NCBI GenBank assembly: GCA_026026165.1
Contig: JAPEUD010000012.1
Span: 1 to 64,000, forward strand
From: Sarea resinae
Lineage: Eukaryota
Direction: 5' to 3'
DNA length: 64,000 nucleotides
Shown here: piece after piece, positions 3,746-23,545 of the stretch
Numbering within the stretch: position 1 is the stretch's first letter
How the letters are laid out: each line of letters begins with the position of its first letter
Notes under the pieces: generated by a model
Seen by the model: the letters and a program-made list of their open reading frames with translations, nothing else
Database searches by the model: none
Told to the model about the DNA's origin: nothing
Made by a program: the position numbers and the translations under genes

Positions 3746-5522
3746 ATGGTTCACCGTGGACCAGCCCCGCGAGCTTGTCAGACCTGTCGCAAAAGTAAAG
3801 TCCGGGTAGGCGTGCTAGAACCGTCCGCTAGGTTGTCCTGTATGGATGCCGTGGCTCATTCGCTGATTATCTCCTCTTCCTGTTCAGTGCGATTTGCGGC
3901 CTGGAGGATGTCTTAATTGTGCAAAACGGGAACGGCCATGTCCTGGATATCCAAATCGAATCGACCTGGCTTTCCACGATGAGAGTGAGGTTGTCGCGAG
4001 GAAAGCCGATGCCGCACGCAGAGCGAGAGCCACGGTTCGTTCGAAGAACAAGCAAGCGACGTCACAGGAGCCCCTTACGACGCAGCAGGGCCGTCAACTT
4101 GTCCAAATCTCAGTGGCTTCAAAGTTGCTGGTCCCCTCATACGCCCCGAGTCCAGATCCCGATGACCTGGCCCTATCATTCTTCTTCTCGCACCATGTGG
4201 TTGGCGGAGGGAGTCGCATGAGGCTCCCCAGTGACCCCCATCAAGACACTGACAGCGATGGAATTACCGATGCCTTGCTCGCCAGCATAAAAAGTGTAGG
4301 GCTTGCTGGCTTCTCGAATCTCTCGCAAGTTCCCGGCCTTCGAAGAATGGCAAGAAAACGATATACAGAAGCAATCGGTCTCGTCAATGCCGCTCTGCAA
4401 TCTCCTGCGGACGTGAGAAAGGACAGTACACTACTCGCTGTGATTAATCTCAGCCAGTTCGAGACCATTGCTGGTGGACCCCAGCGGTCCTTGTTAGCGT
4501 GGACATCCCATATCCAAGGCGCGGCCGCGTTGCTCAATCTGCGAGGGCTGGAGCAGTTTAAGAGACCAGAGAGTCTTCGTCTATACTTCCAGGCCGCGAT
4601 GGACCTTGTGACAAGCTGTCTGCAGCAAGGAATAGCAGTGCCTGACCATATCGTCCACTTGTCTGCGGAGAGTGGAAAATATGTCAACACAAAAGACCCC
4701 GCATGGCGCGTGTTTCGGACCAGGATTCTGTTCGCCAACTTCTGCGCCCATCTAGGTCAAAGGCTTGTCACTGACGATAGTATTATGCTGGAAAGAGCGC
4801 TGGAGCTCGATCAGATCGCTTCTTCTATCTTCTCCGAGGGGGGACGCAGTTGGGAATATCAGACCATCTATACGGATGCCGACCGAGACATTGTCTTGAC
4901 CGGGTGCTATCATATATACAAGAATTTCATGGCCGCACAGGTCTGGAACGGGGTACGCACGATGAGGATGACACTAAATCGAATAATACGCCATATATTA
5001 CTAGCAGACTCGGTATCCAACAATCCAAAGTATTCCGGTTCGAAATACACAGAGCAGCTTCAGCGGTCTACAGGAGCTTTATACAAATGGCAAGCAGACA
5101 TCATTGCTAGCGTGCCGCAGCACCTAGGTTATAGCTCACCCGATAACCAAGGGCTTGTAAATGACGAGTACTCGGTATTCAAATTTCCTTGGTCGAATTT
5201 TGTCACGGCTAGACATGATTTAATACACGCGTCGAAGCCGGCCTTCACTTCTCAGATTCCACTGATTCGCACCACGGGTGGCTATGCGATCCACTGGTCA
5301 CTTTTCATTGTCGGTTCGATTGAGATTGCTACCGTGGCAGTGCGACGCTGGGTACTCAAAATACTCCGGCTGATGGGCTACTCAATGGGCATTCAACAAG
5401 CACTCATCCTGGCCGATGCGCTGGAAGGGAATTTCGCAGAAGACGGTAGAGCAAGTGATGACTTTGCGTACCGGCATTTCCCGAAGTTAGACCTGTCTCA
5501 ACCCAGCGTCTCCGGCCTCTAG
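3746..5522 (+). CDS. Zn(II)2Cys6 transcription factor (2 exons: 3746-3805, 3888-5522; ~564 aa)
   Basis: Splicing the GT..AG intron 3806-3887 gives MVHRGPAPRACQTCRKSKVRCDLRPGGCLNCAKRERPCPGY, a complete C6 cluster. A fungal TF middle domain follows (WTSHIQGAAALLNLRG). Confidence 0.93.
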
Positions 5523-6293
5523 CATTATATGTTGGGGTCAAGCAGTGCCGAGAGCCTCAATGGAATAATATTAAAGCTAGACAGGTTTGTGGGTTGCAGC
5601 TAACAGTGGCCGTGCTAGTTTTGGAAGGCGTTACATACTTGTATTAGTGAGACTTGACTTCTCGCGGAGTATTGACGGCGTAATTGTTTTCCATGCGAAT
5701 AGGTCGAGTGAGCTGTGTAGTCGTAATCCAGGCGAGGGTGAGCTTTAGTTTCTTGCATTTGTTACTCCCTCAAATTCGGTATCTCGACGGTGTCCGAGAA
5801 AATGCCTGAGAGATGCCCTGATTAGTGTTGTTGTAAGCGGTCCCTGAGATACGTCATCCGTCATCCGCGCCTCACTCACCTTGAACCCCACACCCCGCAT
5901 CGTGACTTCGGGAACGGACCCGGGCACTAACATTGCATTTGACTCCGTCATCCTAATTCGGTCCTTGGTGTCACACCTCGGGATCCGCCCCGAGTCTTAG
6001 CTCAGTGCCGGAGTCCAGGTCCGGGGCTAGTTTCGGGCGCTAAGAGACCCTCGGTTCTTTCCTAGCTGGTTGGTATGCGCTTGTCGTGATTGTCGAGGTT
6101 TGCCTTCATCATTTCGGATTCGCATGTAAGATTTCAATACACGCATATCATACGTTAATGGTACGCTGCAGACCATGCGCTTCTTTCGGGTCTCGGATGC
6201 GAGTCCCCGAAATACTTGCTTCTTTTCCTTACGTTTGTAAATGTAAATGCTACGAACGAGGCGCGAGCAGAGATTGCCACGGTTATCCTCACG

Positions 6294-7374
6294 ATGTCAG
6301 CTCCGTTCGCTCGTCTCGTCCGCTTCAAGGACCCACAAGGGCAGGTTCACTACGGAGAGGCCCCAGCAAAGGCAGAGGATTTAGTAGGAGCCGTCGTTCC
6401 AGTCTACGATGGAAAGGTCCCATGGAATCTGACACCGTCCGAGTCTTCATCCGAGATCGCTGAGGTGTTTTATTGTTGAGCGCCCCGACAACGGCTGGTC
6501 TCTGACTGTTGCAGGTGCTATGTCCGTTGCCATGGACACCTTTGATTTACGGTATTGGATTGAATTACAAGCAGCATATCAAGGAATCGGGGGTAAATCG
6601 TCCAAAATGCCATCTTTTCTCCTCTGGCGCGGTTTGCTAAAAGACTATTCTCGTATAGCACCCTGCGCCGACACATCCTGTCATCTTCACGAAGCCACCA
6701 GGTAGGTGGATACGGCAGGCCTCGATTAAACAAATACTTGCTGATGAGGGAGCAATAGACGCCCTGGCGGGACCCTACGAGGATGTGCCAGTAAATCCAG
6801 AGTGCCCGAACATGGATTACGAGGTAATCAAACCATCCATCTATCTCTTCTAGATTGGCAGCCTTAGCCACCATGACAATCGAACCAGGGAGAGTTGTGT
6901 GCCATCATTGGTAAAGACTGCAAAAACCTGTCCCTGACCGAAAACTATCTCGACTACATCCTCGGTTTTACGGCGGGAAATGATGTCTCCTGTCGGTACT
7001 GGCAGATGCCCCCACAATCCGGTAACCAACACGGCTATGCTAAGTCCTTTGACAAGTTTGCGCCCATTGGCCCCGTCATCGTCAGTGCCGCGACTATCGG
7101 CTCGAAGATTGACGATCTCGAGCTCATAACTACGGTCAATGGTGAGAAGCGCCAGAACACGCTGATTGGGGATCTTTTGTTCTCTGTACGTGACTGTTTG
7201 AGCCATCTGAGTCGGGGGACGACGCTGAGGAAAGGGACAGTCATCATGACAGGGACGCCGATGGGGGTGGCGGCGTTCATGAGCCCGCCAGCTTGGTTGA
7301 AGGATGGGGATGTAGTGGGGGTTGAAATTGAAGGAATTGGGACGCTACGGAACAAGATGGTCTTTGAAAAGTAA
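6294..7374 (+). CDS. Fumarylacetoacetate hydrolase (FAH/FAHD) family protein, 5 exons
   Basis: Spliced motifs RLVRF, GIGLNYKQH, PVIFTKPP, DYEGEL, GFTAGNDVSCR, KSFDKFAPIGP and VIMTGTPMGV; four GT-AG introns. Confidence 0.92.
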
Positions 7375-7945: not shown

Positions 7946-10197
7946 ATGGCTCGGCCAATGGCAACCACACCGGATTTCCCAGCTGGCAAGATTAGCGTTG
8001 CCGCATATCTGTTTCATCGGCTTGGTCAGTTGGGAATCCAACACGTCTTTGGCTGTCCCGGAGACTTCAATCTCAATCTCCTGGACCACCTATACACGAT
8101 CCCGTCGATGCACTGGGTCGGCACATGCAATGAACTAAACGGTGCCTACGCCGCGGACGGCTACGCGCGCACGAGAGGCATCCCAGGGGCCTTGATCACG
8201 ACGTACGGTGTCGGGGAGCTGTCGGCGATCAATGGCATCGCCGGCGCCTACAGCGAGCACATCCCCATCATCCACATCGTCGGCACGACGTCCCGCCTCC
8301 ATCAACGCGATCGCATCATGATCCACCATACCCTGGACGAGGATTGGGATCATACTCTCTTCCAGAAGATGTCGGAACCGGTACGGTCGGCGGCGGCCTT
8401 CTTGACAGACGACGCCGCTTTCGTCTCGGAGATCGATCGCGTTGTTCAAACGGCCGTCAAGACTAGACGGCCAGTCTATCTCTTCATCCCCATGGATGTC
8501 CCGGATGTCCTCGTGGATTCGAGCCTGCTCTCGAATCCGCTGGACCTAGAAATCCGCAACTCGGGGCAAGAAGACGTCGAGGACGAGCTGGTCGAGGCCA
8601 TCGTCGCCAAGTTTGAGAAGGCTTCGATCCCGGCTGTTCTTGTCGATGTGCTGGCGCATAGATACGGGGCCGTCGGCATGGTCGAGGAGCTTCTACGCCT
8701 GACCGATCTTCCTGTAGGTTTTCCTCTATCTCACGACGGATACAGAGACGAACGAGAAGAATGACTGAGCAATACCATCCCTTCTAGGCGTACGTGACGC
8801 CACTCTCGAAGTCGGTTATCGACGAGACGAGTCCAAACTTTGCTGGTCTGTACAATGGCCAGCTAAGCCCGTCCGCGTCCGTCACGCGCGCCGTCGAGAT
8901 GTCCGACCTGCTTTTCCATATCGGCCCGCTGCCGTCGGATTCCAACACGGGCGGGTGGAGCCAGCACCTCGAGTCTGCGAACCTGGTCGTTTTCCACCCA
9001 CGCTATGTCTCCATCGCAGGCGACCGCACAGAAGGCGTGCATTTTGTGCCGGTGCTGCGGAAACTCGTGGCCGCGATTGAGAAACGAGGCTTGCATCTCC
9101 ACGAGAGCAAGCCAGGAAAGAATGCGGTAGGTGAAGCTCCACAAATGACGTCGACTTGTGACTGACGATAATGCTGCACTGCTAGGAAACAAATGGCACG
9201 AACGGAGGAACAACAAACGGGAACCACGAGGGCGAGACACTGCCGACAGGACCACTGGAGCAGCATCATCTATGGAAGACATTCGACCGCTACCTGCAGC
9301 CGGACGACTGCATCATCGCGGAAGTCGGCTCGGCGCAATACGGCACTCTAGACTTCCACCTGCCTCGCGGATGTCAATTCTTCACGCAGATATACTTTAG
9401 CTGCATTGGCTTCACGGTCGGGGCCCTGCTGGGCGCACTGGTTGGGAGAAAAGAGCTTGGGCGCACCGGACGCGCGCTCCTGTTCGTCGGCGATGGCAGT
9501 CTGCAGATGACGGTGCAGGTAAGCACCTGAAACCCCCGCCTTTAATATACCACTTTTCCTACCCGTCTCCTCTCGATTGACTCGCTACTTTGGCTACCTA
9601 CTGACTGCAACCACACACACAAAACAGGAGCTCAGCACCGTCTTCCGCAACGGCTTCAACCCGCTCATCATCCTGATCAATAACAGCGGTTACACAATCG
9701 AGCGGATCATCCACGGGCCAACGCAGCTCTACAACGACATCGCCGAGACGTGGGACCACGGACATCTGCTCCGCTTCTTTGGCGCGCCCGAGAAATCCTG
9801 CAGCTACTCGGCGCACACCTTTGAAGAGCTCCGTGCCGTGCTTGACGTGGATCCAGCCTTCTCGTCCGGTGCCCACACTTCTACGATTGCCGCCACTAAC
9901 GAGGAAAACAACGACGAAGATGACGCCAGGTTCAACGACGCCCTCTTTCCCCGCCTCCTAGAAGTCCACCTCAACCCCTTCGATGCTCCCTGGATGCTGA
10001 CTGCACAGATCAACATCACACAGCCGCGCGCCGCGGCCCAGCTGCGGGCCTGGGACCAACGCTGCGGCCGCTCACGAGCCGTGCTGGACTCGAATCTGTT
10101 TGATTCTCCGTTCGCGCTGCAAGACTCGCCCAGCATGAGAGTCGTGCGTGAGAGAGCTAGTGAGGGGTTGGCAGCTGAGCCCAATGGGCTGAAATAG
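7946..10197 (+). CDS. ThDP-dependent 2-oxoacid decarboxylase (pyruvate/phenylpyruvate decarboxylase family), 4 exons
   Basis: FGCPGDFNL, CNELNGAYAADGYAR, TTYGVGELSAINGIAGAYSE, IHHTL and the ThDP motif FVGDGSLQMTVQ...LINNSGYTIE; TATAAAA at ~7854. Confidence 0.93.
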
Positions 10198-10576
10198 CCT
10201 GTTTCTGATTTGGAAGAGAGAGATGGTGGTTAGACGATAGACCTGTGTGGTAGGCTGCTAAGCAGCGAGTACTATCTGTTGATACTAGATATCTATTAAT
10301 CTAACCCGATTCAATTTTTTAATATTGTATGCGATCATCACGAAATCAAAAGATCATACGAATCTAATCGCTTGATGATTGTGATATAAGATCTGGGATA
10401 ATTATCTGATCATACAAAACAAAGGGAAAAATTCCATTGTTGTTGGCAAATCAGACCTGTCCTTTCATAATACGTTCGTGCACTGCAGAATTCCTTCGCA
10501 ATCGTACACGGGTAGACATACGTCCGCTTTCAAGGACAGGTCGCGGGCATCCTGAGACGTACTTTGTACGTAGACT

Positions 10577-13500
10577 CTAACCGCTGGAAACGACCATCCC
10601 ACCTTCTATCCCATTACCACCACCACCGTCGCCGTCGCCGTCGCCGCAACTTGGCATATCAAAGGTTATACCCGCCATGTCCCACTCCGCAAAGCCGGGA
10701 CTCGTAGCATTGATCCCCGTAGTGGCTGTTGCTGCTGTAGTCGCTGTATGGGGATCATGATCATGGTGATCTTGATGCTGTTCCAGGTGCACAAAAAGAT
10801 GTGGAAAATGGTCTGACATGGGGTTATCATGGTAAAGATTGTCAAGTGAAAAAGATGAAGGTGAAGAGTCGGCAGCAGCAACGGCGGTTGCGGCAGTGGC
10901 GACGCAACTGGTATGATGTTCGGAAGTCGTGGACGAAGTATTAGCAGCGGTGACGACGCCCCGCGCCACCCTTTCGAACTCAACGGCATGTCGCAGATTC
11001 ATCAGTCCCGGCGCCAGAAATTCCAGATGGCCGAACAGACCATTGATGACACCCATGAGGGCCGTGTCTTTGGGGGCGGCGGCAGAAGTCGGATTAGCGA
11101 TTGTATGAGTGAAGAGAGTCAGGAGGGCGGTTAGAGGGAAGTAGACAAGGAGCCTGTGGTTTGAAACAATTTAGTAGAACGAATTGAAGGGTAATTGGGT
11201 TTAGTGGACAAGCTCGAATAATAGAATATTGGGGAATGGGCAAACGAACCAGCTGGGCGTACTGGCCAACACTTCGATATATTTGGTGGAGAGAACCATC
11301 TGCCTCGCACTCTCTAGGCTGCGTGAAACCGAATGCCTTCTCCACGCCGGTTGCTCCTGATCGGCTACCAGACTTCGGTCCTCGTCACAAAACAAATACG
11401 GCGCCGTAAACCGCCTATGGAGCGCGCACACGGCATCGTAGTACGTGAACCGCAAGAAAAGCGCTTGGTTGGGATGACTATGTGGGCCCATTCTAGCCAA
11501 GCGGATGGGTTTGTTCGGATGGCAGAAATCCGGAAGACTGTCACGCCAGAGGCAGAGATCACGCTCAATGGCGTCGCGAGTGGGAATCAGTGATACAATA
11601 TCTTTGGTCAGGGAAGAAGCCGAGTAGAACCGACAGCAGATCTTGGAGATTATGCGAGCTAAGCGTGTGATTTGAATGAAGATAGGGTGCGTGTTGTCTT
11701 CGTTTTGGAGAGGTCCGGAGGAGGATGGCGGTCTGCCTGGAGGAAAAACACAGCTGACGTCATCATCATTAATAGCCTATTGTGTTCAGAAGATTAGCTG
11801 GATGTGTAAGTCGAATGGGAGTATTTGACACCGAATACTGTATTCCTAAACGTTTGTAGGGGAACTCACCGATGGTCGTCCAGATCGAAGAGAAACAATC
11901 TTATCTAGTACATAAGTAGACCAGAAAACATTACTCCTCTCGTCGATTTGCTCTGTCGTCAGCCCACAGTCTGGATAACACCGCTTGTGTAACCCTTTTG
12001 CCTGTGCGACACGGGCGGCGAGTGAAGAGAGCATGTAGTCCAATTGAGGCGTAGCGACGCCTTGTCCAAACACACCCTACATGCAGACGACAATAATTAG
12101 CATAGGGTTAGCTTCAGCGGAGTATTACAAAATATACCATCACACAAAGAGCCTGGATAGAAGTCAGCTCTAGAAAACAAACCAGAGGAGAAGTTGCTGT
12201 GAGGATTCGCATTACCTGGACAGACATCAAACTCGTTCTGCTGTGTACCAGCTCCATATGAACAGCGAGGGCATTCTTGAAATAGCCCAATGCTTCTTCT
12301 TCAGCGGATCGAAAGTCGTAGGTACTTTCGGCGGCAAGGAACGTTCGGCATCCGATAGCTAGCACGGCGTTGTAGAGGGCATACCAGGAAATGTCGTCTA
12401 TCCCCTTGCCAACTAATGTTGCACCGAACATAGAGTCAAACTTCTCCTGAGAGATGATATAGACAACGCTATTTCATCCCGTCTTTTTTAGCGTGTTGCA
12501 AAAAAGCCAATTCTGGGGTTAGGAACTCGCCTTTGCACGTGAGAGAAATATGCTACCATTATCCAAAGTCAGCATATCGCAAGCCTCATCATAGCCAGGC
12601 GGGAAGAGAATTGCCTTTAATGTAATGCCTTGCTAGGTGTGGCGCAGGCAATTGAGCTCTTGACTCGTGCAAGCCTTTAAGACTAATACTATCTCTTAGA
12701 GCTCCGGAGACTTTCAGCTGCGACATGACGCCTATACTGAGCTCTCGTAGCGGGTTCAAGTTGATGGACGGGCCAAGACGGTCTGATATCCACTTCAGCC
12801 CGGGATTTGATAGTAGCGATAACCCAGAGGAAGGACCTAGAGCAGAAGATCCGACTGTCAGTCGAGATTTGGTAGGATTTCTGTTTTGACGAGTCCAAGT
12901 TACCTATGTATTCCTGTTCGTCCTGAAAAGGTATGAGCGATCAACATCTCCATAACGCAAGGACTTGGGGCTATACGTCACCTCGGAGTCAAATAATATG
13001 AGATGTGCTCCGTGAGCGCGTATCTGTTCTGGGTCTCGGTCCCACAAGATGTTATCGATCAATTGTCCTTGACCAGAGTTACTTGATGGTCCCAGCGGCC
13101 GCGACGACGGCGGAGACTTCGGAGTGAGAGGACCGATCTCGAAATTGTCCATCTGCGAGCCTTGGTCGCACGTCCAGGTGAAGTCGATAATATCTCCGTC
13201 ATTTATGATTGCATCCATCCCCGCTGATATTGCCGTGTCGATCGAAGGACTCTTGCTAGATTGGTCTGCTCGTGCAGGCCCTACAGGCCCTACGCGGTAT
13301 GGTTGAGGCTCAGATGGAGGCGTCGCTTGAATCTCGATCGGCTCGGGGATTTGAACCAAATGATATTCCTCTTGGCGAAACTTGTTGTTGAAGAAGAACT
13401 CCATTCGATCGACTCGGCGTTCCAATTCTAGATCCGAGTCAGTCAAATTCCAGCGAGCGCAAAGGTCCGGCACAAGGAAGATGACAATACCCGAGTTGCT

Positions 13501-14359: not shown

Positions 14360-14936
14360 CTATTTCAGCGCCGCCGCCAGGGTCCCCATGTCCTGTGGAG
14401 ATGGTGTTTCGTCAGTCTCGATTAGAGTGTGGCTCGGATTAAGGATGTCTTTGTCCTACCGCCCAGACCTGGGAATAGCTCAGCCTCGGACTTCCCGATT
14501 CGTCACTCGCCTCGTCCACGACCATACGAGCGGTAAACTCTGAATCCACCGTCTTGCCATTTCTCAAGCCCATCTGGACCTTGCCAATCAGCATGACGTC
14601 TCGACCTTCGAGGTCGGCGACGTAGGCCTTGAGGATCTCGTGACGTCGCGTCTCGATGACCCTCCAAGCATTATCCCGGGACCGTCGAATCTCTGCCAAC
14701 CTGGATCAGTCGCGAAGGACGTCACCCAAAACTGGTCACTCGATACCTTGAGAGCCAGTGAATTTGGATCCAACCCCCATCAGAGTGGCTTCTTCTGCAA
14801 AGACTTCCTCGGCGAGCCTGTCTCCGGCTTCCGGACTGTTCAAATCGGCGAGGACGTAGAAGCGCTCGATAAGATGCTGAATGGACGAGGGGATGGGATG
14901 TGCTGGCCACACCGTATTCTCTGTAGTATAACCCAT
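14360..14936 (-). CDS. Small SnoaL/NTF2-like fold protein (3 exons, ~150 aa)
   Basis: MGYTTENTVWP...IERFYVLAD...VFAEEATL / EIRRSRDNAW...RRHEILKAY...SEFTARMVV...YSQVWA / DMGTLAAALK*; GT-AG introns join the ORF-track pieces. Fold assignment is from pattern recall. Confidence 0.72.
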
Positions 14937-15461: not shown

Positions 15462-16190
15462 ATGGCCGCAGACTTCGACGCACCGGTATCCAAAGTTCTG
15501 AGGCCGTCCCATCTGGCCCATGTGGTCCTGCGAACGAGCAACCTGCGACGCATGGTCTCCTTCTACACCACATTCCTCGGCGGCACCGTCACCCATGAGA
15601 ATGAGGTGCTCTCATTCATCACCTACGACGAAGAGCACCACCGCATCGCCATCCTCGAGCTTCCTGACACCGCTCCCAAGATCGCCACCTCGAGCGGCTT
15701 GGACCACATCTCCTTTTCCTTTGACACGTTGGCCGACCTCTTCCTGAGTTATCGCCACCGCAAGCAACATGGCATCGAGCCGGTATGGTGCGTGAATCAC
15801 GGCCCTACCACCAGCATCTACTACAAGGACCCCGACGAGAACGTCCTGGAGACCCAAGTTGACAATTTTGACACCGTGGCCGAGGCATCCGAATTCATGC
15901 GAAGCGCCAACTTTGCCGAGAATCCCATCGGCACAGACATTGACCCGGAAGACTTGATCAAACGCATCGAGAGCGGCGAGGACGAGACCTCGCTGAAGAC
16001 TAGGAATGAGATCGGGCCTCGTGGGGTCCCAGATTTTTCGGCGATGAAGGCAAAGGAGTGGAGGACTCCTGGAGAGTCGACGCCAAATGGAGTAAAGAAG
16101 GCGTTGGGATCCAGCCAGCCCAACAAATTCTGTGGGTTCCGAGATTTTGTGGGGCTGAGTAGAGCTCGCATGAGCTCTGGTTCGATCTAA
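15462..16190 (+). CDS. VOC/glyoxalase-family protein, extradiol dioxygenase-like (biphenyl-2,3-diol dioxygenase III-related)
   Basis: First ATG at 15462. PSHLAHVVLRT, FITYDEEHHRIAI, GLDHISF and WCVNHGPTTSIYYKDPDENVLETQVDNF provide a His/His/Glu metal triad pattern. Confidence 0.87.
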   Translation: MAADFDAPVSKVLRPSHLAHVVLRTSNLRRMVSFYTTFLGGTVTHENEVLSFITYDEEHHRIAILELPDTAPKIATSSGLDHISFSFDTLADLFLSYRHRKQHGIEPVWCVNHGPTTSIYYKDPDENVLETQVDNFDTVAEASEFMRSANFAENPIGTDIDPEDLIKRIESGEDETSLKTRNEIGPRGVPDFSAMKAKEWRTPGESTPNGVKKALGSSQPNKFCGFRDFVGLSRARMSSGSI

Positions 16191-16548
16191 AGTTTCTTCT
16201 CTATCAAGCAGTGAATTGTGTAGGAAAAGATATCGTGGGTTGGACTCACAGAAATGCACTGGGTTTGAGAGGCAACGAGATTGTATATTAGCTGCGCAGC
16301 GTTCAGTCAAGAAGACTCAGGCATGCATTTTGAGGCGTCTAATGTGAAGGGAAAGTGTCCGAATATTACAGGTTTATATGATAATGTACCGTATTTTCGA
16401 GGATATATAGCCAATTTCGAAATATAGTCACTTATCCTTTTCTTTCAATTCCAAATCCCGTAAGACCACGTCTTGATGTCGGGTATTGCACAAGAAAGAT
16501 TCTATATTCATAAGCTATCTAGTCAAAACTCAAACTTTCTTTCTTGTT

Positions 16549-19083
16549 CTAAAGCTTAGCCGCCAAATCGGCCTGGTCGGCCTTCTCGATGTCAAAGAAC
16601 CTCTGATAGCTGGCAAAAGACGCCGGGTTGGCGACGGCACCATTCGGTTTCAACGGCTGGCCCGAGACGATTTGCTTGACGGCTAGCTCGATTTTCTTCC
16701 CGTTGACCGTATAGGGAATCTCGGTGATCTCGAAGATGTATTTTGGCACATGACGTGGAGAACGTGCCTCGCGAATTGCCTTCTTGATCTCTTCGCGCAG
16801 CTGCCGTGTCAGTCGAGAGCTGGGCTTCATTTTAACGAAGAGCACGACAGCCTCATCATTGTCCTGGGGACGGCGTTGCCCGACGCAGATGGAGTCGTCA
16901 ATGTCGGGAATTTTCTCGACGATAGCGTAGATCTCGGCGGACCCGAAGCGGACTCCCGAGGGATTGAGCACGCCGTCACTGCAGTAGCAGCAAAGTCAAT
17001 AGCCGCTCCTCAAAACTAGAGGGCTGAACCACTTACGATCTTCCTAGCATAAGGATTCCTTTCGTATCCGGCACCACCATTACGAAGTCACCTTGGCACC
17101 AGACACGGTTACCAAAGCGCTCAAAGTACGAAGACTGGTACCGCTTCATGCCGTTCTCGCCCCAAAACATAACAGGCTGGCTCGGGAACGGCTGCAAACA
17201 GACAAGCTCTCCGGGCTCGCCGGTTTCCTTGATCGACACGACCGTGGAACTGGTGTTGTCTACGATGTCTACGGCCATTCCCAGACTGTCGCATTGGATC
17301 TCTCCAGAGTATACGGGAAGCGTTGGGCTTCCAGTGACCACTAGGCGTTGATAATCAGCTCCTAGACATAGTGCCAAAGTCGTTAACGTTGCTTACGAGA
17401 ACAAGCCATGTCCGTCCCACCACTCATAGATATAAGATGTATGTCAGAAGGGAACCCATGATCATAGAACCAGTTGCAGACGTCGGCCGTCAAGGTGCTT
17501 CCAGTAGAGGTTACTGTTCGGAGGCTGGAGAGGTCGATTAATTCTCCTGCATCCGGTCAACTCATCGTTCCTGTTGAGATGTGCTAGCAGAACCTACGAG
17601 GTTTTAAGCCCGAGCTCTTCAGGTCAGATAAGAATCTAGCCGATGTTCCGAACATCGTGATCCTAAACAACAGCCAAACTCAGTAGCTATCCTGCCTGTG
17701 AGATAAAAGCGTCGAAAATCTACTTACTTGAGCTTAGCAATAAGCCGGAGAAGGACAAGAGGGTCCGGTCTCAGTGGCGACCCATCATATAGTACTACGC
17801 TACCACCGGTCGATAGTCCGCACAAGGCAAATGCCCACATAATCCAACTAGTCTAGCATTGCAGACGTATTAAAGAGTGTCGTACTAAGGAAAGCCAAAG
17901 GCCGAATATAGGAGACTCACTGAAGTATACTGGAACAAGACGTCACTTGGCCCTACACTAGTATGGAGGACCAGATCTTTCTTAATTTGGAGAAGCATTC
18001 CCTATTCTCGACCAAAAAAGACGGTCAGTACAGTTCCTTTATGAAGAAGAACGGATAGAGACGTAGACTTGCCCCTGCACTATGGACGATGCATTTAGGC
18101 GGACCAGTCTGCACAACCTTGATTTAGTTCTCGTACTGGTTCTTTATCAGAGGCAATACTGTACCGTGCCCGAAGAGTAGACGATGAGACCGGGATGATG
18201 AAAGGGCAGTTGCTTGAAATGCAGTTCCCTTCCGACTCCTCGTTCGAGGAAGAGATCCCACGAAATCAATTTGATCTCAGGATCTTCCCTCATCGCCCCG
18301 TCGTGGGAGAGGAGGATGATGTTTTGAAAGTCCTGCATCTTGGACATGATCTTGGCACATTCTCTGTTCTTCGGCATGAGATCGCGTAGTTTTCCATTAT
18401 AGAAGACGGCCTTCTCAGCAAAGAGAAGCTTCGGACGGATCTGCAACAAGCGGTCCAGAATGCCGTCAACGCCCATATCGGGTGACGTCGTCGACCAAAG
18501 CGCTCCAATTGAGATGGTAGCGAGGCAGGCCACGACCGTTTCCAGTCGGTTAGAAAGAATTCCAGCCACCCGATCATCTGTGCGCACGCCAGACGATATC
18601 ATGGCGTCCGCGACCCTTTGAACCTCGGATTGTAGTGTTCCCCAAGTTATGTCTTTCAGATTCGTAATGCCCTCCCCGCACGTATGTATCGCAACCGCGT
18701 TTGGATCCCGACCCGAAAGCATGTTCTCTACAATGTTGAGGCGAACCTCGGGGAAAAAGGACGGAGGGGGGAACATAAGACGCCTGTCCTATTGAGAGAG
18801 ATTAGTCGGCGCATCATGAATCAGAAAATATGTGCAGGAAGGTTACTTTAGCTGATATAGACACAGTCGGACGTCTGTCGGACTTGATTTCAAGGAAAAG
18901 AAAAAGGTCCACCCAAAAGTCATCGGCCGTCTTCTCACCGACCGAATAGGCATGTAAATCGGCATAGTCCTTCAAATTGGCTCTGTGTCGACTATTGACG
19001 AATGCGCGGAATCGGTCCGTTGCGGTTGCTGCAACTCGTGGCTTCCACAGCAGACGTCGCTCAGAGTCATTCGATGCCGCCAT
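16549..19083 (-). CDS. Acetoacetyl-CoA synthetase (AACS), multi-exon, C-terminal AKL
   Basis: LWKP...DYADLHAYSV, LWSTTSPDMG...DRLLQIRPKLLF, YSSGTTGPPKCIVHSAGG, QYTSTSWIMW, SMSGGTD, PFPSQPVMFW, VWCQGDF, GRSDGVLNPSGVRFGSAEIY, TVNGKKIELAVK. Confidence 0.95.
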
Positions 19084-19765: not shown

Positions 19766-21713
19766 ATGGTCTCTCCGATTGAAGTCCCCGTGATTATCAT
19801 CGGCGGTGGAGGCTGCGGCTTGAATCTTTCCGTGTTCTTATCGAACCTGGGCGTGGAGCATTACCTTTTTGAGAGACATCCAGGAACAGCTATCCTCCCC
19901 AAAGCCCACTACCTGAACCAGCGTTCTATGGAGATCTTTCGACAGCATGGAATCGATGACATCAAAGCTCAAGGCTGTCCGGCACGTAATATGAGCCAGA
20001 TCATATGGCAAACCTCTCTTGGTGGCCAAGGTCCGTATGATCGCCGAGTCATTGGTCAGTTGGACGCGTTTGGAGGGGCAGAGCATTCCGCGCATGCGCA
20101 GATATATCGGTGCGTACGATTCTCTTTGCTAAATGGATAGTCCTCTCTGACTGCGCTTTAGCAAAGATTCGGCCGTCGTCTCTTCCAATCTCCCACTGAT
20201 TCGGTCAGAACCCGTCTTTCGCGCTGCCGCCGAGAAGCGGAATCCAGGCAAAGTGCTCTTCAGCCACGAGGTCACCGATCTCGTCGATAAAGGCGACTAT
20301 GTCCTGGTTAGTGTCAAGGATTCAAATGACCAAGTCGTGGACTATCATGCTCAGTACGTCGTTGCCGCGGACGCGGGGAAAACAGCAGGGCCGCGGATCG
20401 GGGTCCAAATGGAAGGACCGACAGGAATCGTCGACTTTGTGAGCGTTCACTTCAAGGCCGACCTGTCAAAATACTGGGACGGTATGATCCCTCTCATCTC
20501 CACGTCTGCAATCTATCTGATTATAGAGATTATAGATCGAGCTCTGATAACGCACTTCATCAACCTCGAAGGCGGATCTATGGCCAACTTCGACTGCGGC
20601 GCTTTGGTTCAAATGGGACCAACGTGGGGCAAGCGTTCAGAAGAGTGGACCATACACTTTGGATTCGACCTGAATGATAAAGAGAGGTTCAACGAGGCTG
20701 CACTTGTTCCTCGCCTTCGCCAACTGCTCAAGTTGCCTGATCTGGAGCTTGAAGTGCTTCATTACAGTCATTGGGTTCTAGAACGCGTACTGGCGAACAA
20801 GTATCGCGAAGGAAGAATATTCATTGCTGGCGATGCAGCTCATCGACGTCCACCAACTACGGGCCTTGGTCTCAACACAGCTATCGAGGATGCGCTCAAT
20901 ATTGCCTGGAAATTATCCATGGTTGTCCACGGAAAAGCAAACCCTTCACTACTAGATACATACGAGAGCGAGCGTCGCCCAGTTGGAAAACGAAATTCGG
21001 ACTGGGGACTTTTCACGTTCTCCCATTTCAACGTCCTCAACTCTGCAATCGGGCTAATACCGGGACAAGTAAAGGCCAACAACCAGCGCTTTGCGAACAT
21101 CTTCGAAGATTCTGCTCTGGGAGACAGCATCAAAGCCCAGATTCAGCGGACCATCGAATTACAGAACATCGAGTTTTCAGCCCATGACATCGAGCTTGGG
21201 TTTCGCTACGAAAAAGGCGCCGTGACTCCTGACGGTACAGATCCGCCGCCGGCCGATCCTGTTGGACAGATATACTACCCAACTACTCGGCCGGGTCATC
21301 GACTGCCACATGCCTGGTTGGAATTCAAGGGGAAAGTACTATCCACGCATGATCTGATTGGGAGATCAGGGAATGATTTCCTATTGATCACGGACGAAGA
21401 TGGTGATGAGTTGGTCAAGGAGGCTGAGACTTTGGCAAAGCGCTTCGCATTAACTATCGCCGTGGCACGCATTCAACGTCATCGACATAGCGACGGCTCG
21501 GACCTCTACGACGATCGTGATGGTCAATGGGCTCGAGTGCGTGAGCTCGGTGCTGGAGGGGCTCTTCTCGTCCGACCTGATAACTTTGTCGCTTGGCGTA
21601 GCAGGGCGGCCGGCCAGATAGAAGGTAAGAGCTTGACAGACAATTTGACCCAACTTTTACACCACGGTCAGGCGCGGCTAGTCAACGGTCACCAGATGCG
21701 ATTAAAATATTAG
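19766..21713 (+). CDS. FAD-dependent aromatic monooxygenase (PheA/TfdB, 2,4-dichlorophenol 6-monooxygenase-like)
   Basis: IIGGGGCG, ERHPGTAILPKAHYLNQRSMEIFRQHG, VVAADAG, AGDAAHRRPPTTGLGLNTAIEDA, PGHRLPHAWL, LVRPDNFVAW. Introns at ~20110-20161 and ~20482-20536 (second approximate). Confidence 0.93.
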
Positions 21714-22151
21714 GATCTGAATATTTCTTCCTTCAAAGTTTGGACACTACGGATCTATCCATTGTTTATTATCTTGCAATCCAATTATATGATTTTTGTC
21801 ATGTTTTGTCTATAATACATGTCGTTGGCCTCAACTCCAAAAAATCCCCCCTTTGCCTTAGAGCGAACGACGTTGCTGGTTTCGGCTACTCCGTACTAGT
21901 AGCTAGGGGGGGTGGGGAGGTGTGGGGCCTAGGGCGTAAGCATGCCGATCCTTGATTCGTTTGCTGATCGCCAACGACCTGGCGAAATCATTGCCCAATT
22001 TAGTAAGTCTGACAGTCACGTCGATCAGCTGCCGTATTCTCCATAAAGGGTGAAGAGCTTAGGGTTCGAATATAAGCATCTCGTGTCTTCCCTCTAGCAG
22101 TGTCATTACTACCGTCAACACCCAGCTCGCTCGCAAGATTCTCGGCGCAAC

Positions 22152-23545
22152 ATGTCAGCCCTCTCTGAAGCCACAGCAGCCGTCAATGCCGCACTCGACT
22201 CCCTTCCAGCCAGTACAGCCAGTTTCGACGAGAGCGAGCGTACGGCGGCCCTTGCGGCCTGTCAGCGCCTCAAAGAGTCGCTGCAGAGCACACGAGAGGC
22301 TTGCTTTGACATTGCTTTTGTTGTGAGTCAGCCCTGCATGCCCTTTGAGCCGCTTCTTCTCGGCGGTCTAGCGATCATGTATCGCTGATCCGCGGATAAA
22401 TCCGTCTGCACCAGGCTCAGAAGCCTGCAGCCGTGAGAATCGGCATGGGCATGGGAATCTTCAATACTATGGCTGCCGCAAGGGGCGCAGCGACAACAGC
22501 GAATGAGCTGAGTGAGAAGACGGGCGTGGAGGCTTTGATGATCGGTATGGTTTTGCTTCCCGTGGCAAAGTAGCCGTAAAGTTGACTCCAACTAAGTGAG
22601 GGTGATGCGCATGCTTGTTGCCATGAGAATATTTGAGGAGACTGGGCTGCAGACGTACAAGTCGCTGCCGCTCGCTGGCGCATTTGTAGACGGGAGCCCC
22701 ATGTCGTACGCCCTGACTCATGTGTTTGTGCCACCAGGACCATCCATTGCTATCTCTTACTGACACGTTGGTCACACAGAGGCGGCCACGAAGAAGCCAT
22801 TGTCAAGCTGCCTGTCTACCTCGAGTCCACCGACTATGCCACTCCTAGTGACGCCTTTCACGGGCCTTGGCAATACGCGATGCAGACGGACCTGCACCAC
22901 TTTGATTGGCTCAAGACGAAGCCGAAGCTCCAAGCCGCTTTCAACAACGTTATGGGCATGCGACGTGCGGGCCGCGGCGAGGAGTGGTTTGACTTTTATC
23001 CTGTCGCCGAGAAACTGCGCGTGGAGAAACCTGATGACGTGCTGCTCATCGACATCGGCGGAGGCAGAGGGCATGATCTGGTTGATTTCCACCGACGGCA
23101 TTCAAATTTACCAGGGAAACTGATCCTACAGGACCTACCTACCGCCATTGACGATATCAACGAGCCGCTACCTAGCAGCATTGAGGCGCAGAGACATGAT
23201 TTCTTTACACCACAGCCAGTCAAGGGCGCGAAGGCGTATTATCTGCGGACAGTATTACATGACTGGCCAGATAAGCAGGCGTTACAAATATTGAGGAACG
23301 TCCGCGAGGCGATGTGCAAAGGTAGTGTTCTACTTGTGAACGAGAACTGTCTCCGGGATCGAGACGTGCCCTTGTTTGAGGCCCAGATGGATTTTACCAT
23401 GATGGTGTTGTTTGCGAGTTTGGAGCGGACAGAAGTGCAATGGCGGAAGCTGCTAGGGGAGGCGGGCTTCAGGGTGACGGGAGTTTACAGGCCGCGGGTA
23501 GTCATGGTCGGGAGCGGGACGTTATTTGAGGCAGTCGCTGCGTAG
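22152..23545 (+). CDS. SAM-dependent O-methyltransferase (Methyltransf_2 / COMT-like), 4 exons
   Basis: LIDIGGGRGHD, LILQDLP, HDFFTPQPVKGAKAYYLRTVLHDWPD, ERTEVQW; TATAA at ~22071; the N-terminal exons splice in frame. Confidence 0.93.

Follow-up and report, generated by a model that had tools for sequence, protein, structure and literature searches.

A subtelomeric gene cluster of Sarea resinae that probably opens the ring of a phenol by an unusual route

Do the nine genes that lie next to a chromosome end of Sarea resinae serve a common function, and if so, on what kind of compound do they act? Our answer, drawn from protein families and gene context, is that they probably form a catabolic cluster for hydroxylated aromatics, with the stepwise route proposed below (rough probability 0.6). 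That the cluster is a catabolic ring-cleavage module of some kind is very probable.

Layout and transcripts of the locus

The window, that is, the whole 64-kb stretch of DNA analysed, opens with the telomere repeat (CCCTAA)21 (positions 1..126, no strand), followed by AT-rich, stop-rich DNA up to about 2800, and the cluster starts 3.6 kb inward of the repeat. Positions 3746-23545 hold nine intact fungal genes with introns. A Pfam search of 139 stop-to-stop ORFs of at least 70 aa from the 3-27 kb interval returned only Fungal_trans_2, FAA_hydrolase, TPP_enzyme_N/M/C, Fungal_trans, Glyoxalase/VOC, AMP-binding(+C), FAD_binding_3+Rng_hyd_C, Methyltransf_2, and SET, the last lying outside the cluster, farther along. 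All six enzyme families are represented in the cluster by intact genes, and no transporter gene was found among them. Two gene pairs are divergent, the start codons being ~525 bp apart for NTF2-like/VOC and ~670 bp apart for AACS-like/monooxygenase. The original prediction of nine contiguous, intact, telomere-proximal genes with two Zn2Cys6 regulators and these two divergent pairs (SnoaL/VOC and AACS/monooxygenase) was thus borne out by the repeat, Pfam, and the gene models.

One wood-decay metatranscriptome contained spliced RNA contigs of three cluster genes, encoding the FAH-fold, NTF2-like, and PDC-like proteins. Contigs on TF2 (10371-10685), VOC, AACS-like (16481-16978), and the monooxygenase, the latter crossing 21303-21793 unspliced, were present in the same RNA run.

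Conservation of the gene set in fungi and bacteria

The gene neighbourhood was counted at 30 distinct fungal VOC loci, each of at least 8 kb. The partners found were a monooxygenase at 16 loci, FAH at 9, NTF2-like at 5, a ThDP enzyme at 4, TF2-like at 4, and AACS at 2, the AACS (2/30) and ThDP (4/30) partners being confined to a minority of related loci. One locus (L027) combines TF, VOC, FAH, AACS, and FMO, and another (L032) PDC, FMO, NTF2-like, TF, FAH, and VOC. At least 10 named ascomycete genomes have VOC and FAH on one contig or with adjacent locus tags (e.g., FE257_008256/008257).

VOC-FAH-type operons were also seen in three bacterial phyla or classes. A Rhodococcus rhodochrous plasmid shows the order VOC-FAH-acetoacetate-CoA ligase-FAD monooxygenase-NTF2, then malonic semialdehyde reductase and an E1-like ThDP protein, and R. 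koreensis has AACS-FAH-VOC-FMO plus malonic semialdehyde reductase. A lichen-derived Paraburkholderia has 2-oxoacid dehydrogenase E1+E2-VOC-FAH-NTF2-FMO; a Streptomyces locus has FAH, VOC, FMO, and the IOR family; a Sphingobium locus has FMO, FAH, CoA transferase, NTF2, VOC, and a beta-keto-acid cleavage enzyme. Bacterial locus L071 holds IOR, AACS (813.7 bits vs a cut-off of 639), VOC, FMO, and FAH, and bacterial locus L072 an ALS-like ThDP enzyme, VOC, FAH, and FMO.

The grouping exceeds chance, for the neighbours of VOC homologues from other fungi and from bacteria belong to the same partner families: a VOC/FAH/monooxygenase core with recurrent NTF2-like, AACS, and ThDP/2-oxoacid partners is conserved in both. 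The original view of the genes as one functional unit gained support. That the genes are chance neighbours with no joint function is highly improbable. Subtelomeres gather unrelated accessory genes, and two members of the cluster are not conserved partners (see below), but partner genes are found again in other fungi, with 58-70% identity, and in bacterial operons, and a single RNA run contains transcripts of several cluster genes. Synteny in fungi and bacteria contradicts this reading. Our literature search found no study characterising the recurrent VOC/FAH/monooxygenase set, and the module is best read as a conserved, uncharacterised catabolic route common to many ascomycetes and bacteria.

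The two exceptions are TF1 and the O-methyltransferase (OMT). TF1, a Zn2Cys6 regulator with a Fungal_trans_2 domain (3746..5522, + strand), was modelled with exons 3746-3805 and 3888-5522 and intron 3806-3887, its six-Cys pattern spanning the junction. The OMT (Methyltransf_2, 73 bits; ~22152..23545, + strand) lies at the cluster edge. Each was found beside 0 of the 30 related loci, which leaves a conserved core of fewer than nine genes: the predicted nine-gene cluster stands as to gene content, but not as to these two as conserved partners. The second regulator, TF2 (10577..~13753, - strand), was recognised by its Fungal_trans domain and N-terminal Cys pattern, its exon structure being a rough model only. 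Its relatives adjoin VOC in four fungal loci (L027, L032, L050, and L058), and TF2 is the likely pathway regulator.

The closest PDB matches of the OMT were MpaG' (2.6e-44) and LepI (7.5e-40), relatives of the secondary-metabolism type, on which the original prediction was silent. They are consistent with a biosynthetic cluster without a core synthase, in which a phenolic would be hydroxylated, O-methylated, and cyclised by the SnoaL-type protein rather than consumed. Polyketide clusters often contain SnoaL/NTF2-like proteins and PheA/TfdB-type monooxygenases (fold matches of an NTF2-like homologue include SdnG, NsrQ, and SnoaL2), and the subtelomeric site and two cluster regulators would also suit such a role. 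Yet Pfam found no PKS, NRPS, or terpene synthase in the whole 64-kb window, as originally noted for the cluster; the OMT is missing from 30/30 related loci; conservation extends instead to FAH, AACS, and 2-oxoacid enzymes; and the bacterial operons pair the module with IclR/TetR/LysR regulators, ABC/MFS/TonB transport genes, and acyl-CoA enzymes. We consider a tailoring role very improbable.

Enzymes of the proposed ring-cleavage route

The candidate ring-cleavage enzyme is a one-domain VOC protein of 242 aa (PF00903; 15462..16190, + strand), identical to database protein P0002, for which 1572 homologues were found; it bears a C-terminal extension of ~44 aa that is missing from homologues. Among 25 aligned homologues, H20, H59/H60, H82, H113, Y120/121, and E130 are invariant, and the His/His/Glu triad, His-His, and Tyr map to predicted strands 1, 5, 8, 4, and 7. 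Foldseek on the structure model (pLDDT 79.8) returned 3b59 first, then the catalytic domains of HPCD, BphC, and catechol 2,3-dioxygenase, and the family profile aligned with residues 215-272 and 138-270 of catechol 2,3-dioxygenases. An extradiol signature was matched by 109/120 fungal homologues; of 14 bacterial VOC reading frames compared with it, 11 belong to the family, and 10 of these 11 match. The window's own protein misses one position, with Glu in place of Gly/Pro. By sequence score, glyoxalase I, FosA, and "BphC-III-related" proteins are as close to the family as proven dioxygenases. The invariant residues, Foldseek matches, and signature support the predicted extradiol-type enzyme, which the protein looks like.

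Divergent from the AACS-like gene lies the PheA/TfdB-type FAD monooxygenase (FAD_binding_3 + Rng_hyd_C; 19766..21713, + strand; ~630 aa; intron 20110-20161; stop codon 21711-21713), with PDB matches to 6u0p (3e-63) and HbpA (5.5e-52). Orthologues with 57-63% identity adjoin VOC in L050/L051 and L059, without FAH in L050 and L059, and most VOC-FAH loci have monooxygenases only 27-33% identical to that of the window.

The FAH-fold (FAHD/HpcE-like) enzyme (PF01557, 160.9 bits; 6294..7374, + strand) has 280 aa and five exons, and removal of its four GT..AG introns, as seen in the RNA contig, yields database protein P0144 exactly. We propose that it hydrolyses a C-C bond in the product of ring fission. 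The substrates of FAH-fold hydrolases are 1,3-dicarbonyls, and a 1,3-dicarbonyl arises directly from ring fission only if the ring has a hydroxyl meta to the cut. The nearest solved structures are HpcE (4.5e-41), 8sky, OPET decarboxylase, and diketo-deoxyrhamnonate hydrolase; since they include decarboxylase/isomerases (HpcE, OPET decarboxylase) besides hydrolases, hydrolysis by the FAH enzyme is not established. In a variant of classical catechol meta-cleavage, a plain alkyl-catechol would be cut by the VOC protein, the FAH-fold protein would be a hydratase/decarboxylase (MhpD/XylI/HpcE-like), and the PDC-like enzyme would replace the aldolase on a 4-hydroxy-2-oxoacid, oxidation then giving acetoacetate for the ligase. 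HpcE and OPET decarboxylase being the best solved relatives fits this, as do the SDR or other oxidoreductase genes near several bacterial loci and the name [quoted passage not shown] given to many FAH homologues by one source. However, this variant would need several additional steps encoded at other sites of the genome, and Pfam on the 3-27 kb ORFs found neither a semialdehyde dehydrogenase nor a meta-fission-product serine hydrolase nor any other dehydrogenase in the window; we regard this variant as quite unlikely.

The NTF2/SnoaL-like gene (14360..14936, - strand; three exons, 151 aa) gave no Pfam match when its exons were searched separately. It is nevertheless real, given that introns 14392-14458 and 14693-14746 are removed in an RNA contig (4 mismatches in 577 nt) and that it belongs to a family of ~150-aa proteins (289 representatives). 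Members matched SnoaL_2 weakly (16/26) or SnoaL_4 (5/26), at best at 3.1e-6, and a homologue model (pLDDT 94.7) matches the NTF2-like fold. The family was found in L005, L023, L032, L055, and L058, and we propose that the cluster's member is a tautomerase or isomerase.

The PDC-family ThDP-dependent 2-oxoacid decarboxylase (7958..10197, + strand; ~666 aa, three introns in the model, of which ~9516-9624 is removed in an RNA contig) carries TPP_enzyme_N/M/C in order, matches yeast PDC at 1.6e-66, and has a copy with 61% identity in L032. The AACS-like gene (16549..~19094, - strand; ~8-9 exons, N-terminal boundary approximate) had NF002937/TIGR01217 as best NCBIfam for each exon (169.7, 106.3, 148.6, and 27.9 bits) and matched PDB 4wd1 at 2.1e-22, and its homologue P0242 aligns along its own residues 8-683. 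Its identity to matches named acetoacetyl-CoA synthetase is only 35-40%; it falls in a group of other fungal proteins to which it is 54-58% identical, and two of these bear the NCBI label acetoacetate-CoA ligase. By family assignment, the ligase is a member of the acetoacetate-CoA ligase family, in line with the original call.

These two members had seemed odd, and were predicted to take the products of an FAH cut to a 2-oxoacid and a 3-oxoacid. The bacterial loci carry equivalents that are non-orthologous, both for the 3-oxoacid (AACS; CoA transferase plus beta-keto-acid cleavage enzyme) and for the 2-oxoacid (IOR family, E1/E2 dehydrogenase, ALS-like ThDP enzyme), and this joint occurrence points to products of those two classes, which on balance we favour. 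For plain pyruvate, bacteria would have no need of dedicated 2-oxoacid enzymes, whose presence hints that the 2-oxoacid may be a different one.

Substrate and comparison with known systems

In the proposed route, the monooxygenase would hydroxylate a phenol to give vicinal hydroxyls plus a further one (1,2,4-trihydroxy type), and the VOC protein, as a metal-dependent extradiol dioxygenase, would open the ring beside the diol. The resulting 2,4-dihydroxy-6-oxo-dienoate, whose keto form is a 2,4,6-trioxo acid, would probably be ketonised or isomerised with the help of the NTF2/SnoaL-like protein. The FAH-fold enzyme would then hydrolyse the beta-diketone C-C bond to pyruvate or a homologue and acetoacetate or a homologue, the AACS-like ligase would activate the 3-oxoacid, and the PDC-family enzyme would decarboxylate the 2-oxoacid, likely under the control of TF2. 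The compound broken down is probably a plant, wood, or lichen phenol; that it is of the resorcinol/orcinol/alkylresorcinol type is a tentative suggestion.

A hydroquinone-type substrate is an unlikely alternative. Here a p-dihydroxy ring (gentisate-, homogentisate-, or methylhydroquinone-like) would be formed by the monooxygenase and cut beside one hydroxyl by the VOC protein, FAH would hydrolyse a maleyl/fumaryl-acylpyruvate or -acetoacetate, the ligase would take acetoacetate, and the PDC-like enzyme would act upstream on an arylpyruvate. Acetoacetate is the hallmark FAH product of the homogentisate route, and PcpA and LinE are bacterial VOC-fold hydroquinone dioxygenases. Moreover, maleylpyruvate/fumarylpyruvate hydrolases are among the solved FAH relatives (6jvv, 8.1e-20; 4maq, 2.7e-21), and the best NCBIfam for the PDC-like N-terminus is indolepyruvate decarboxylase. 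Against this, the nearest VOC folds after 3b59 are extradiol catechol dioxygenases, neither an aldehyde dehydrogenase to finish the arylpyruvate route nor a glutathione-dependent isomerase is present, and the malonic semialdehyde reductase of both Rhodococcus loci better fits a resorcinol-type cut.

For hydroxylation followed by extradiol cleavage of a 2,3,5-trihydroxy-aryl compound, two published accounts offer precedents. In that on hcdABC, a hydroxylase yields a 2,3,5-trihydroxy-aryl compound that undergoes extradiol cleavage (PMC6222606), and in the other, methylhydroquinone is converted via trihydroxytoluene to 2,4,6-trioxoheptanoate (PMC8571283).

Layout, gene models and transcripts of the cluster

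Twenty-one perfect CCCTAA units (1-126) stand at the start of the window, after which AT-rich, stop-laden DNA extends to about 2800. This subtelomeric stretch (127-2800), with a GC content of 0.39-0.45, was dense in TAG- and TAA-containing words and held no open reading frame (ORF); it looks like the outcome of repeat-induced point mutation of former repeats. Nine genes with short fungal-type introns occupy 3746-23545. Pfam, run on 139 stop-to-stop ORFs at 3-27 kb, returned in order Fungal_trans_2, FAA_hydrolase, a three-domain ThDP enzyme, Fungal_trans, Glyoxalase/VOC, AMP-binding, FAD_binding_3 with Rng_hyd_C, Methyltransf_2, and SET. The ninth cluster gene, a small minus-strand gene for an NTF2-like protein, was placed between TF2, one of the two Zn2Cys6 regulators (TF1 and TF2), and the VOC gene. 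The original prediction had described a telomere-proximal nine-gene set with two divergent pairs, NTF2-like/VOC and AACS-like/monooxygenase, and this layout was borne out by the telomere repeat, Pfam, and the gene models. It had also claimed an absence of PKS, NRPS, and terpene synthase genes, and as a matter of fact Pfam found none in the 64 kb among ORFs of at least 70 amino acids (3-27 kb) or at least 115 amino acids (25-64 kb). Nor did the window hold any of three enzymes that mark the classical meta route, namely its serine hydrolase, its semialdehyde dehydrogenase, and its aldolase.

The other 40 kb of the window contained a helicase fragment (AAA_12, 30088-30594), an NLR-like NACHT/ankyrin gene (35960-39677), whose NPHP3_N/NACHT-type N-terminal domain precedes numerous ankyrin repeats, as well as genes for a POT transporter, a TFIIIC subunit, and DnaJ. 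A SET-domain gene (23967-25405) lies directly after the OMT gene, and could either mark the border of the cluster or have to do with chromatin control of a subtelomeric cluster.

Gene ends were set from gene-finder models, homologues, and RNA contigs, the latter drawn from a single public metatranscriptome run that bears the label wood decay metagenome, in which contigs 95-99% alike to the cluster were found. The VOC gene (15462-16190, plus strand) is a single exon, and its product is identical to P0002, a database protein from a 516,356-bp contig. The FAH gene (plus strand) was placed at 6294-7371 by tblastn of P0144, a 280-aa protein recorded under a metagenome-assembled genome with the label Sarea resinae, on a contig of equal length; one RNA contig had four GT..AG introns removed, and the resulting exon join gave P0144 exactly. 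For the NTF2-like gene (14360-14936, minus strand, 151 aa), two introns were spliced out in an RNA contig with 4 mismatches over 577 nt, and a third contig showed the ThDP gene spliced over an intron of 109 nt. In the AACS-like gene (minus strand), residues 8-683 of the fungal homologue P0242 aligned across 19056-16552 with an unbroken frame order; a putative joint at 17340/17398 was set aside on account of its non-canonical CT..CG ends and one extra letter. The RNA contig on the 3' end of the monooxygenase (FMO) gene ran unspliced up to the stop codon at 21711-21713 (plus strand), and an intron of TF1 (3806-3887, plus strand) splits the six-cysteine zinc cluster. More RNA contigs lay on TF2, the 3' part of VOC, and the 3' end of the ligase gene. 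This run gave no cover on TF1, OMT, most of the PDC gene, and the 5' part of FMO, which is no evidence of silence. Given the identity of VOC and FAH to database proteins, the RNA splices, the P0242 alignment, and the TF1 zinc cluster, all nine genes look intact, the exon structures of TF2, PDC-like, and OMT being partly verified.

Incidentally, the summed contig depth in the same wood-decay run (X1) peaked (46.9) at 15022-15687, with many loose ends. Several other organisms of this sample appear to express VOC homologues.

The VOC protein and its partner enzymes

The VOC protein had 1572 detectable relatives, the best of which (66-72% identity, about 200 aa) came from Eurotiomycetes, Sordariomycetes, Dothideomycetes, and Leotiomycetes. 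Its fold was assigned by PF00903 (51.3 bits vs a cut-off of 20.6) and by a model (pLDDT 79.8) showing eight strands and two long helices in VOC-fold order, that is, paired beta-alpha-beta-beta-beta modules. Foldseek matched this model with a probability of 1.00 to HPCD, BphC, and LapB. The first rank went to 3b59, an uncharacterised Mn-bound two-domain protein, followed by the catalytic domains of homoprotocatechuate 2,3-dioxygenase, BphC, and catechol 2,3-dioxygenase. Residues H20, H59/H60, H82, H113, Y120/Y121, and E130 were invariant in 25 aligned sequences. H20, H82, and E130 fall in predicted strands 17-25, 79-87, and 128-134 (strands 1, 5, and 8), and the other invariant residues were modelled in strand 4, in the loop before strand 7, and in strand 7 itself. 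We take this placement to be the ligand and second-sphere layout of type I extradiol dioxygenases. HMMER alignments to 3b59 and to catechol 2,3-dioxygenases suggested that H20, H82, and E130, as a 2-His-1-carboxylate triad, correspond to the metal ligands of the solved enzymes.

A His-His-Arg motif was present in all 120 VOC homologues. The extradiol signature, a PROSITE-type pattern scored here on VOC-family relatives, was matched by 109 of the 120 fungal homologues. Of 14 bacterial VOC reading frames tested, 11 belong to the family, and 10 of these matched it too. The window protein itself misses it at one position, with Glu for Gly/Pro. Speaking against a dioxygenase, glyoxalase I, FosA, and "BphC-III-related" proteins scored in sequence profiles about as well as proven dioxygenases. 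The nearest solved chains were 3b59, 9u42, and the "BphC-III-related" 3ey7, to none of which the listing assigns a reaction. Collectively, sequence and model give good, yet not conclusive, support to a one-domain extradiol dioxygenase. We noticed that about 44 C-terminal codons (16056-16190) extend beyond the point (...PDxxxM) at which all 24 aligned homologues end. This tail is predicted to be disordered (pLDDT below 50) and is spanned unspliced by an RNA contig; it could reflect a lost stop codon or be a lineage-specific addition.

The FAH protein matched PF01557 with 160.9 bits on its last exon and is a 280-aa FAHD/HpcE-like member of the family. P0144 aligned to 24 solved FAH members, and a Glu-x-Glu and an Asp, presumably the metal ligands of the family, were identical in the three printed alignments. 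Its best solved relatives were of two kinds, HpcE and OPET decarboxylase on the one hand, diketo-deoxyrhamnonate hydrolase and acylpyruvase FAHD1 on the other, and NCBIfam matches all fell under their cut-offs. Since both kinds scored in similar measure, the reaction type may be either that of a hydrolase or that of a decarboxylase/isomerase.

When the exons of the AACS-like gene were scored singly, acetoacetate-CoA ligase models NF002937/TIGR01217 came out best (169.7, 106.3, 148.6, and 27.9 bits), with three times the bits of acetate-CoA ligase (at most 52.5); the family cut-off of 639 applies to the full-length protein, and model positions ~276-421 lay outside the scored exon pieces. The best solved relative was also an acetoacetate-CoA ligase. 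Identity reached 54-58% with one fungal protein group, two members of which are labelled acetoacetate-CoA ligase at NCBI, and only 35-40% with matches named acetoacetyl-CoA synthetase. The ThDP enzyme carries TPP_enzyme_N, M, and C in order. It matched yeast PDC at 1.6e-66, and PDC, branched-chain, and indolepyruvate decarboxylases at 1e-66 to 1e-50, as against about 1e-10 for acetolactate synthases, so that it is predicted to be a decarboxylase of the PDC/indolepyruvate decarboxylase family.

FMO combines FAD_binding_3 (178.2 bits) with a C-terminal aromatic-ring-hydroxylase domain (59.4 bits). Its closest solved relatives were 6u0p, named 2,4-dichlorophenol 6-monooxygenase (3e-63), and the 2-hydroxybiphenyl 3-monooxygenase HbpA (5.5e-52). 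The nearest matches of OMT were MpaG' and LepI, both of which act in fungal secondary metabolism. Scored exon by exon, the NTF2-like gene had no Pfam match even at E = 1. Its family comprises ~150-aa proteins (289 representatives), and weak matches were obtained among 26 aligned members to SnoaL_2 (16/26) and SnoaL_4 (5/26). The homologue P0272, 52-54% identical to the window protein, was modelled as an alpha+beta cone (pLDDT 94.7) that Foldseek matched to SdnG, the KSI-like 4h3u, NTF2, LinA, and SnoaL2 at about 1e-6. The earlier "SnoaL" label is therefore acceptable at the superfamily level.

Conservation of the gene set in fungi and bacteria

To follow the cluster in other fungi, we collected DNA around VOC homologues from metagenome contigs and queried it with the window exons and further queries. 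Of 170 pattern matches, 119 were confirmed, and 80 loci were retained. Thirty-eight loci were at least 8 kb long, and 30 were counted as distinct after merging eight look-alike pairs, recognised by their shared match positions and identities. A PheA/TfdB-type monooxygenase accompanied VOC in 16 of the 30, FAH in nine, an NTF2-like gene in five, a ThDP enzyme and a TF2-like regulator in four each, and AACS in two. OMT and TF1 were each found at 0/30. Individual fungal loci held a regulator, a P450, VOC, FAH, AACS (60-70% identical), and a monooxygenase (L027), or PDC (61%), a monooxygenase, an NTF2-like gene, a regulator, FAH, and VOC (L032), and two more (L023 and L055) combined VOC, FAH, and an NTF2-like gene. 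Orthologues of the window FMO (57-63%) adjoined VOC in L050/L051 and in L059, in all cases without FAH and in L059 together with a ThDP enzyme; the window FMO is of a different clade from the commonest monooxygenase partner.

Named genomes gave the same association. VOC and FAH carry adjacent locus tags in Aspergillus nanangensis (FE257_008256/008257) and Cercospora kikuchii (CKM354_000403300/000403200) and close ones in Neonectria magnoliae (QQZ08_008361/008359). They lie on a contig of the same length or carry neighbouring tags in A. unguis, A. pseudodeflectus, A. floccosus, A. turcosus, Stagonosporopsis vannaccii, Fusarium agapanthi, and Dactylonectria macrodidyma. Among the 26 AACS proteins returned, co-location with FAH was seen only in A. 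oleicola, on a 25,292-bp contig. This count is thin because the AACS search returned just those 26 proteins, the window's own being missing.

At least six paralogous VOC loci with differing neighbours (L002, L011, L027, L057, L058, and L059) share the record prefix of one fungal metagenome-derived assembly, which suggests an expansion of the family within single genomes. Cytochrome P450 genes recur near the VOC module, in fungal L027, L050, and L055 and in Rhodococcus L085, where a PDR/VanB-type reductase and a flavin reductase accompany them. These P450s may be O-demethylases or side-chain hydroxylases feeding the pathway.

The VOC family was also found in bacterial operons, at 40-50% identity. 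One bacterial contig (L071) carried an IOR-family 2-oxoacid oxidoreductase, YceI, an acetoacetate-CoA ligase (813.7 bits vs a cut-off of 639), VOC, a monooxygenase, FAH, an acyl-CoA dehydrogenase, and IclR. A 139-aa ORF between its AACS and VOC genes was unlike the NTF2-like gene and belonged to no Pfam family. Others grouped a monooxygenase, FAH, and VOC (L066); TetR, an ALS-like ThDP enzyme, VOC, FAH, a quinone oxidoreductase, and a monooxygenase (L072); FAH, SnoaL_4, VOC, and a monooxygenase (L064); or a ThDP enzyme, an SDR, and VOC (L080).

A plasmid search with the window VOC (E <= 1e-10) returned 26 records, from which 11 regions were fetched. Six of these were annotated and motif-bearing: FAH and an FAD-dependent monooxygenase were present in 6/6 and an NTF2-family gene in 4/6. 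On the Rhodococcus rhodochrous plasmid the order was VOC, FAH, acetoacetate-CoA ligase, monooxygenase, and NTF2, then malonic semialdehyde reductase and an E1-like ThDP protein. R. koreensis carried AACS, FAH, VOC, a monooxygenase, and malonic semialdehyde reductase. In a Paraburkholderia lichen isolate, 2-oxoacid dehydrogenase E1 (mdeB) and E2 directly precede VOC, FAH, and NTF2, with a monooxygenase gene ~1.5 kb beyond. An IOR-family gene follows VOC and the monooxygenase on a Streptomyces plasmid, and in Sphingobium a CoA transferase and a 3-keto-5-aminohexanoate-cleavage-family protein stand amid FAH, NTF2, and VOC. In two unannotated records, FAH adjoins VOC. The VOC proteins encoded on plasmids from Agrobacterium, Priestia, and Bradyrhizobium, with an identity of 27-33% and without the motif, were kept out of the counts. 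The clustering is thus conserved, VOC occurring with FAH and monooxygenase genes in fungal loci and bacterial operons, in line with the co-occurrence that the original prediction had proposed to check.

A more distant arrangement was seen on a Bradyrhizobium guangxiense plasmid from a peanut root isolate (L091, 6349-11248), where a carotenoid-oxygenase-family gene directly precedes a VOC gene of 27.8% identity without the extradiol motif. NTF2, MFS, and FAH genes lie nearby and an IOR-family gene upstream. The carotenoid-oxygenase family includes stilbene-cleaving enzymes, and this locus may be a stilbenoid-degrading variant with the same logic.

Proposed route and comparison with known systems

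Monooxygenase, VOC, and FAH genes recur together, in many cases joined by one for an NTF2-like protein, and this core marks what we predict to be one pathway. The cluster is, as judged from its genes, a conserved and so far uncharacterised putative extradiol-type catabolic module. This part of the original interpretation stood; its substrate class is still conjectural, and OMT and TF1, which it had counted in the pathway cluster, are absent from the 30 related loci.

FAH-fold hydrolases cut 1,3-dicarbonyl compounds. To our knowledge, extradiol fission gives such a compound directly only from rings that carry another hydroxyl in the meta position relative to the cut, such as 1,2,4-trihydroxy rings. 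For a resorcinol-type substrate, the order of reactions would be flavin hydroxylase, one-domain VOC extradiol dioxygenase, NTF2-like tautomerase, and FAH-fold acylpyruvate-type hydrolase, the last releasing one 2-oxoacid and one 3-oxoacid from a 2,4,6-trioxo acid. Ring substituents would then be mirrored in the side chains of the two products: orcinol would yield pyruvate and acetoacetate, resorcinol pyruvate and malonate semialdehyde, and beta-orcinol 2-oxobutanoate and acetoacetate. That ligases, semialdehyde reductases, and dedicated 2-oxoacid enzymes accompany the core would follow from such substituent-dependent products.

Partner enzymes at VOC loci did vary by lineage, both for 3-oxoacids (either AACS or a CoA transferase paired with a beta-keto-acid cleavage enzyme) and for 2-oxoacids (PDC-like, ALS-like, E1/E2, or IOR). 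These non-orthologous swaps are what one would expect of a hydrolase whose products are a 2-oxoacid and a 3-oxoacid. Pyruvate and acetoacetate had been deduced as products from the PDC-like and AACS-like genes of the window. The two acid classes fit the locus pattern, yet for some substrates the 2-oxoacid may be larger than pyruvate, as the dedicated bacterial 2-oxoacid enzymes hint. Malonic semialdehyde reductase and acetoacetate-CoA ligase, annotated in both Rhodococcus loci, fit with resorcinol (through malonate semialdehyde) and orcinol (through acetoacetate) as alternative inputs. Overall, we give roughly one chance in three (about 35%) to the module being a cross-kingdom, previously unrecognised central pathway for resorcinol-type phenols, with the route and split products proposed here. 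Our hypothetical substrates for it, of lichen, wood, and resin origin, would be resorcinol, orcinol, beta-orcinol, 5-alkylresorcinols, and 3,5-dihydroxyphenyl units derived from stilbenes.

Fungal aromatic catabolism is described as running through a handful of central pathways, mostly intradiol or cupin-based. According to the available text of a 2025 cross-kingdom survey, VOC-type extradiol dioxygenases of fungi still await study, and the characterised fungal extradiol enzymes for lignin-related catabolism are of the homogentisate type only (PMC12420386). Our literature search found no paper tying genes to fungal orcinol or resorcinol meta-cleavage. A 1986 paper, referenced in PMC8484666, reportedly described orcinol degradation by Aspergillus niger. 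If true, our proposal would supply the genes for it, as well as the first VOC-type extradiol central pathway in fungi. The cluster offers a testable gene set (hydroxylase, dioxygenase, helper protein, hydrolase, and two funnelling enzymes), with orthologous sets in culturable Aspergillus, Fusarium, and Colletotrichum and on Rhodococcus plasmids, where genetics is easy. Were the substrate resorcinolic, the pathway would matter for how lichen depsides, cereal alkylresorcinols, and the stilbenes of wood and resin are turned over, and would provide enzymes that make building blocks of the pyruvate and acetoacetate type directly from such phenols.

Two systems were set aside as relatives: the riboflavin-to-acetoacetate/pyruvate pathway uses other enzyme types in the published part consulted (PMC12746152), and the available text of a preprint on a stilbene-cleavage cluster mentions neither glyoxalase/VOC nor FAH (10.1101/343673). 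The nearest described fungal system is the 1,2,3,5-tetrahydroxybenzene (gallate) cluster, with a flavoprotein monooxygenase, an FAH-like protein, a short protein lacking any known domain, and a regulator, the FAH-like and short proteins being likened to ours by description (PMC10832562). Acetopyruvate appears near the end of that route, ring cleavage is attributed to a DUF3500 protein, and the text available describes no VOC member (PMC10832562). DUF3500 was found neither in ORFs of the window nor in those of L023, L027, L032, and L055, and membership in the tetrahydroxybenzene cluster was ruled out because the window lacks it.

In Pseudomonas putida ORC, orcinol is said to be converted to 2,3,5-trihydroxytoluene, 2,4,6-trioxoheptanoate, and small acids (Chapman and Ribbons, 1976). 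The proposed order here is alike: flavin hydroxylase, extradiol cleavage of a 2,3,5-trihydroxy-aryl ring, and triketo acid hydrolysis. Reportedly, however, its hydrolases give acetate and acetylpyruvate, then acetate and pyruvate, and no acetoacetate; that pathway is bacterial and known from enzymology rather than from genes, with no AACS, ThDP, or NTF2-like member described. The Mhq route of a fenitrothion-degrading Burkholderia leads from 2-methylhydroquinone via trihydroxytoluene to 2,4,6-trioxoheptanoate, and the reference list of that paper cites the P. putida orcinol pathway and work on mhqA/mhqB (PMC8571283). Here too, a monooxygenase and an extradiol dioxygenase yield the same kind of triketo acid. 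No Burkholderia record was among the 26 plasmid matches to the window VOC (E <= 1e-10), a search that lends no support to kinship with MhqB.

The one-domain (class I.1) extradiol dioxygenases BphC2 and BphC3 of Rhodococcus globerulus P6, reportedly described by Eltis and Bolin in 1996, combine a single ~190-aa VOC catalytic domain with the His/His/Glu triad and the extradiol signature; the window VOC would resemble them in domain and triad, and departs from the signature at one position. In the homogentisate pathway, FAH releases fumarate and acetoacetate, and the window is predicted to share this use of an FAH-superfamily C-C hydrolase to free acetoacetate after aromatic ring cleavage. The homogentisate enzymes are a cupin dioxygenase and a two-domain ~420-aa FAH, whereas the window encodes a VOC protein and a 280-aa FAHD/HpcE-like one.

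Finally, the hcdABC genes of Pseudomonas mandelii 7HK4 encode an FAD hydroxylase that forms 3-(2,3,5-trihydroxyphenyl)propionate, whose ring is opened by a type I extradiol dioxygenase to a 2,4-dihydroxy-6-oxo-dienoate, and a hydrolase then gives an acetopyruvate-type acid and succinate (PMC6222606). As far as the available text goes, HcdB is of type I, class II, unlike the one-domain window VOC; HcdC is a putative hydroxymuconic-semialdehyde hydrolase rather than an FAH-fold one; relative to the central carbonyl, the cut falls on the side opposite to the one proposed here; and no ligase, ThDP, or NTF2 member is part of the operon (PMC6222606). Yet the succession of a hydroxylase, a type I extradiol dioxygenase, and a hydrolase is the one proposed here, and hcdABC, as described there, offers a precedent for the chemistry proposed for the window (PMC6222606).
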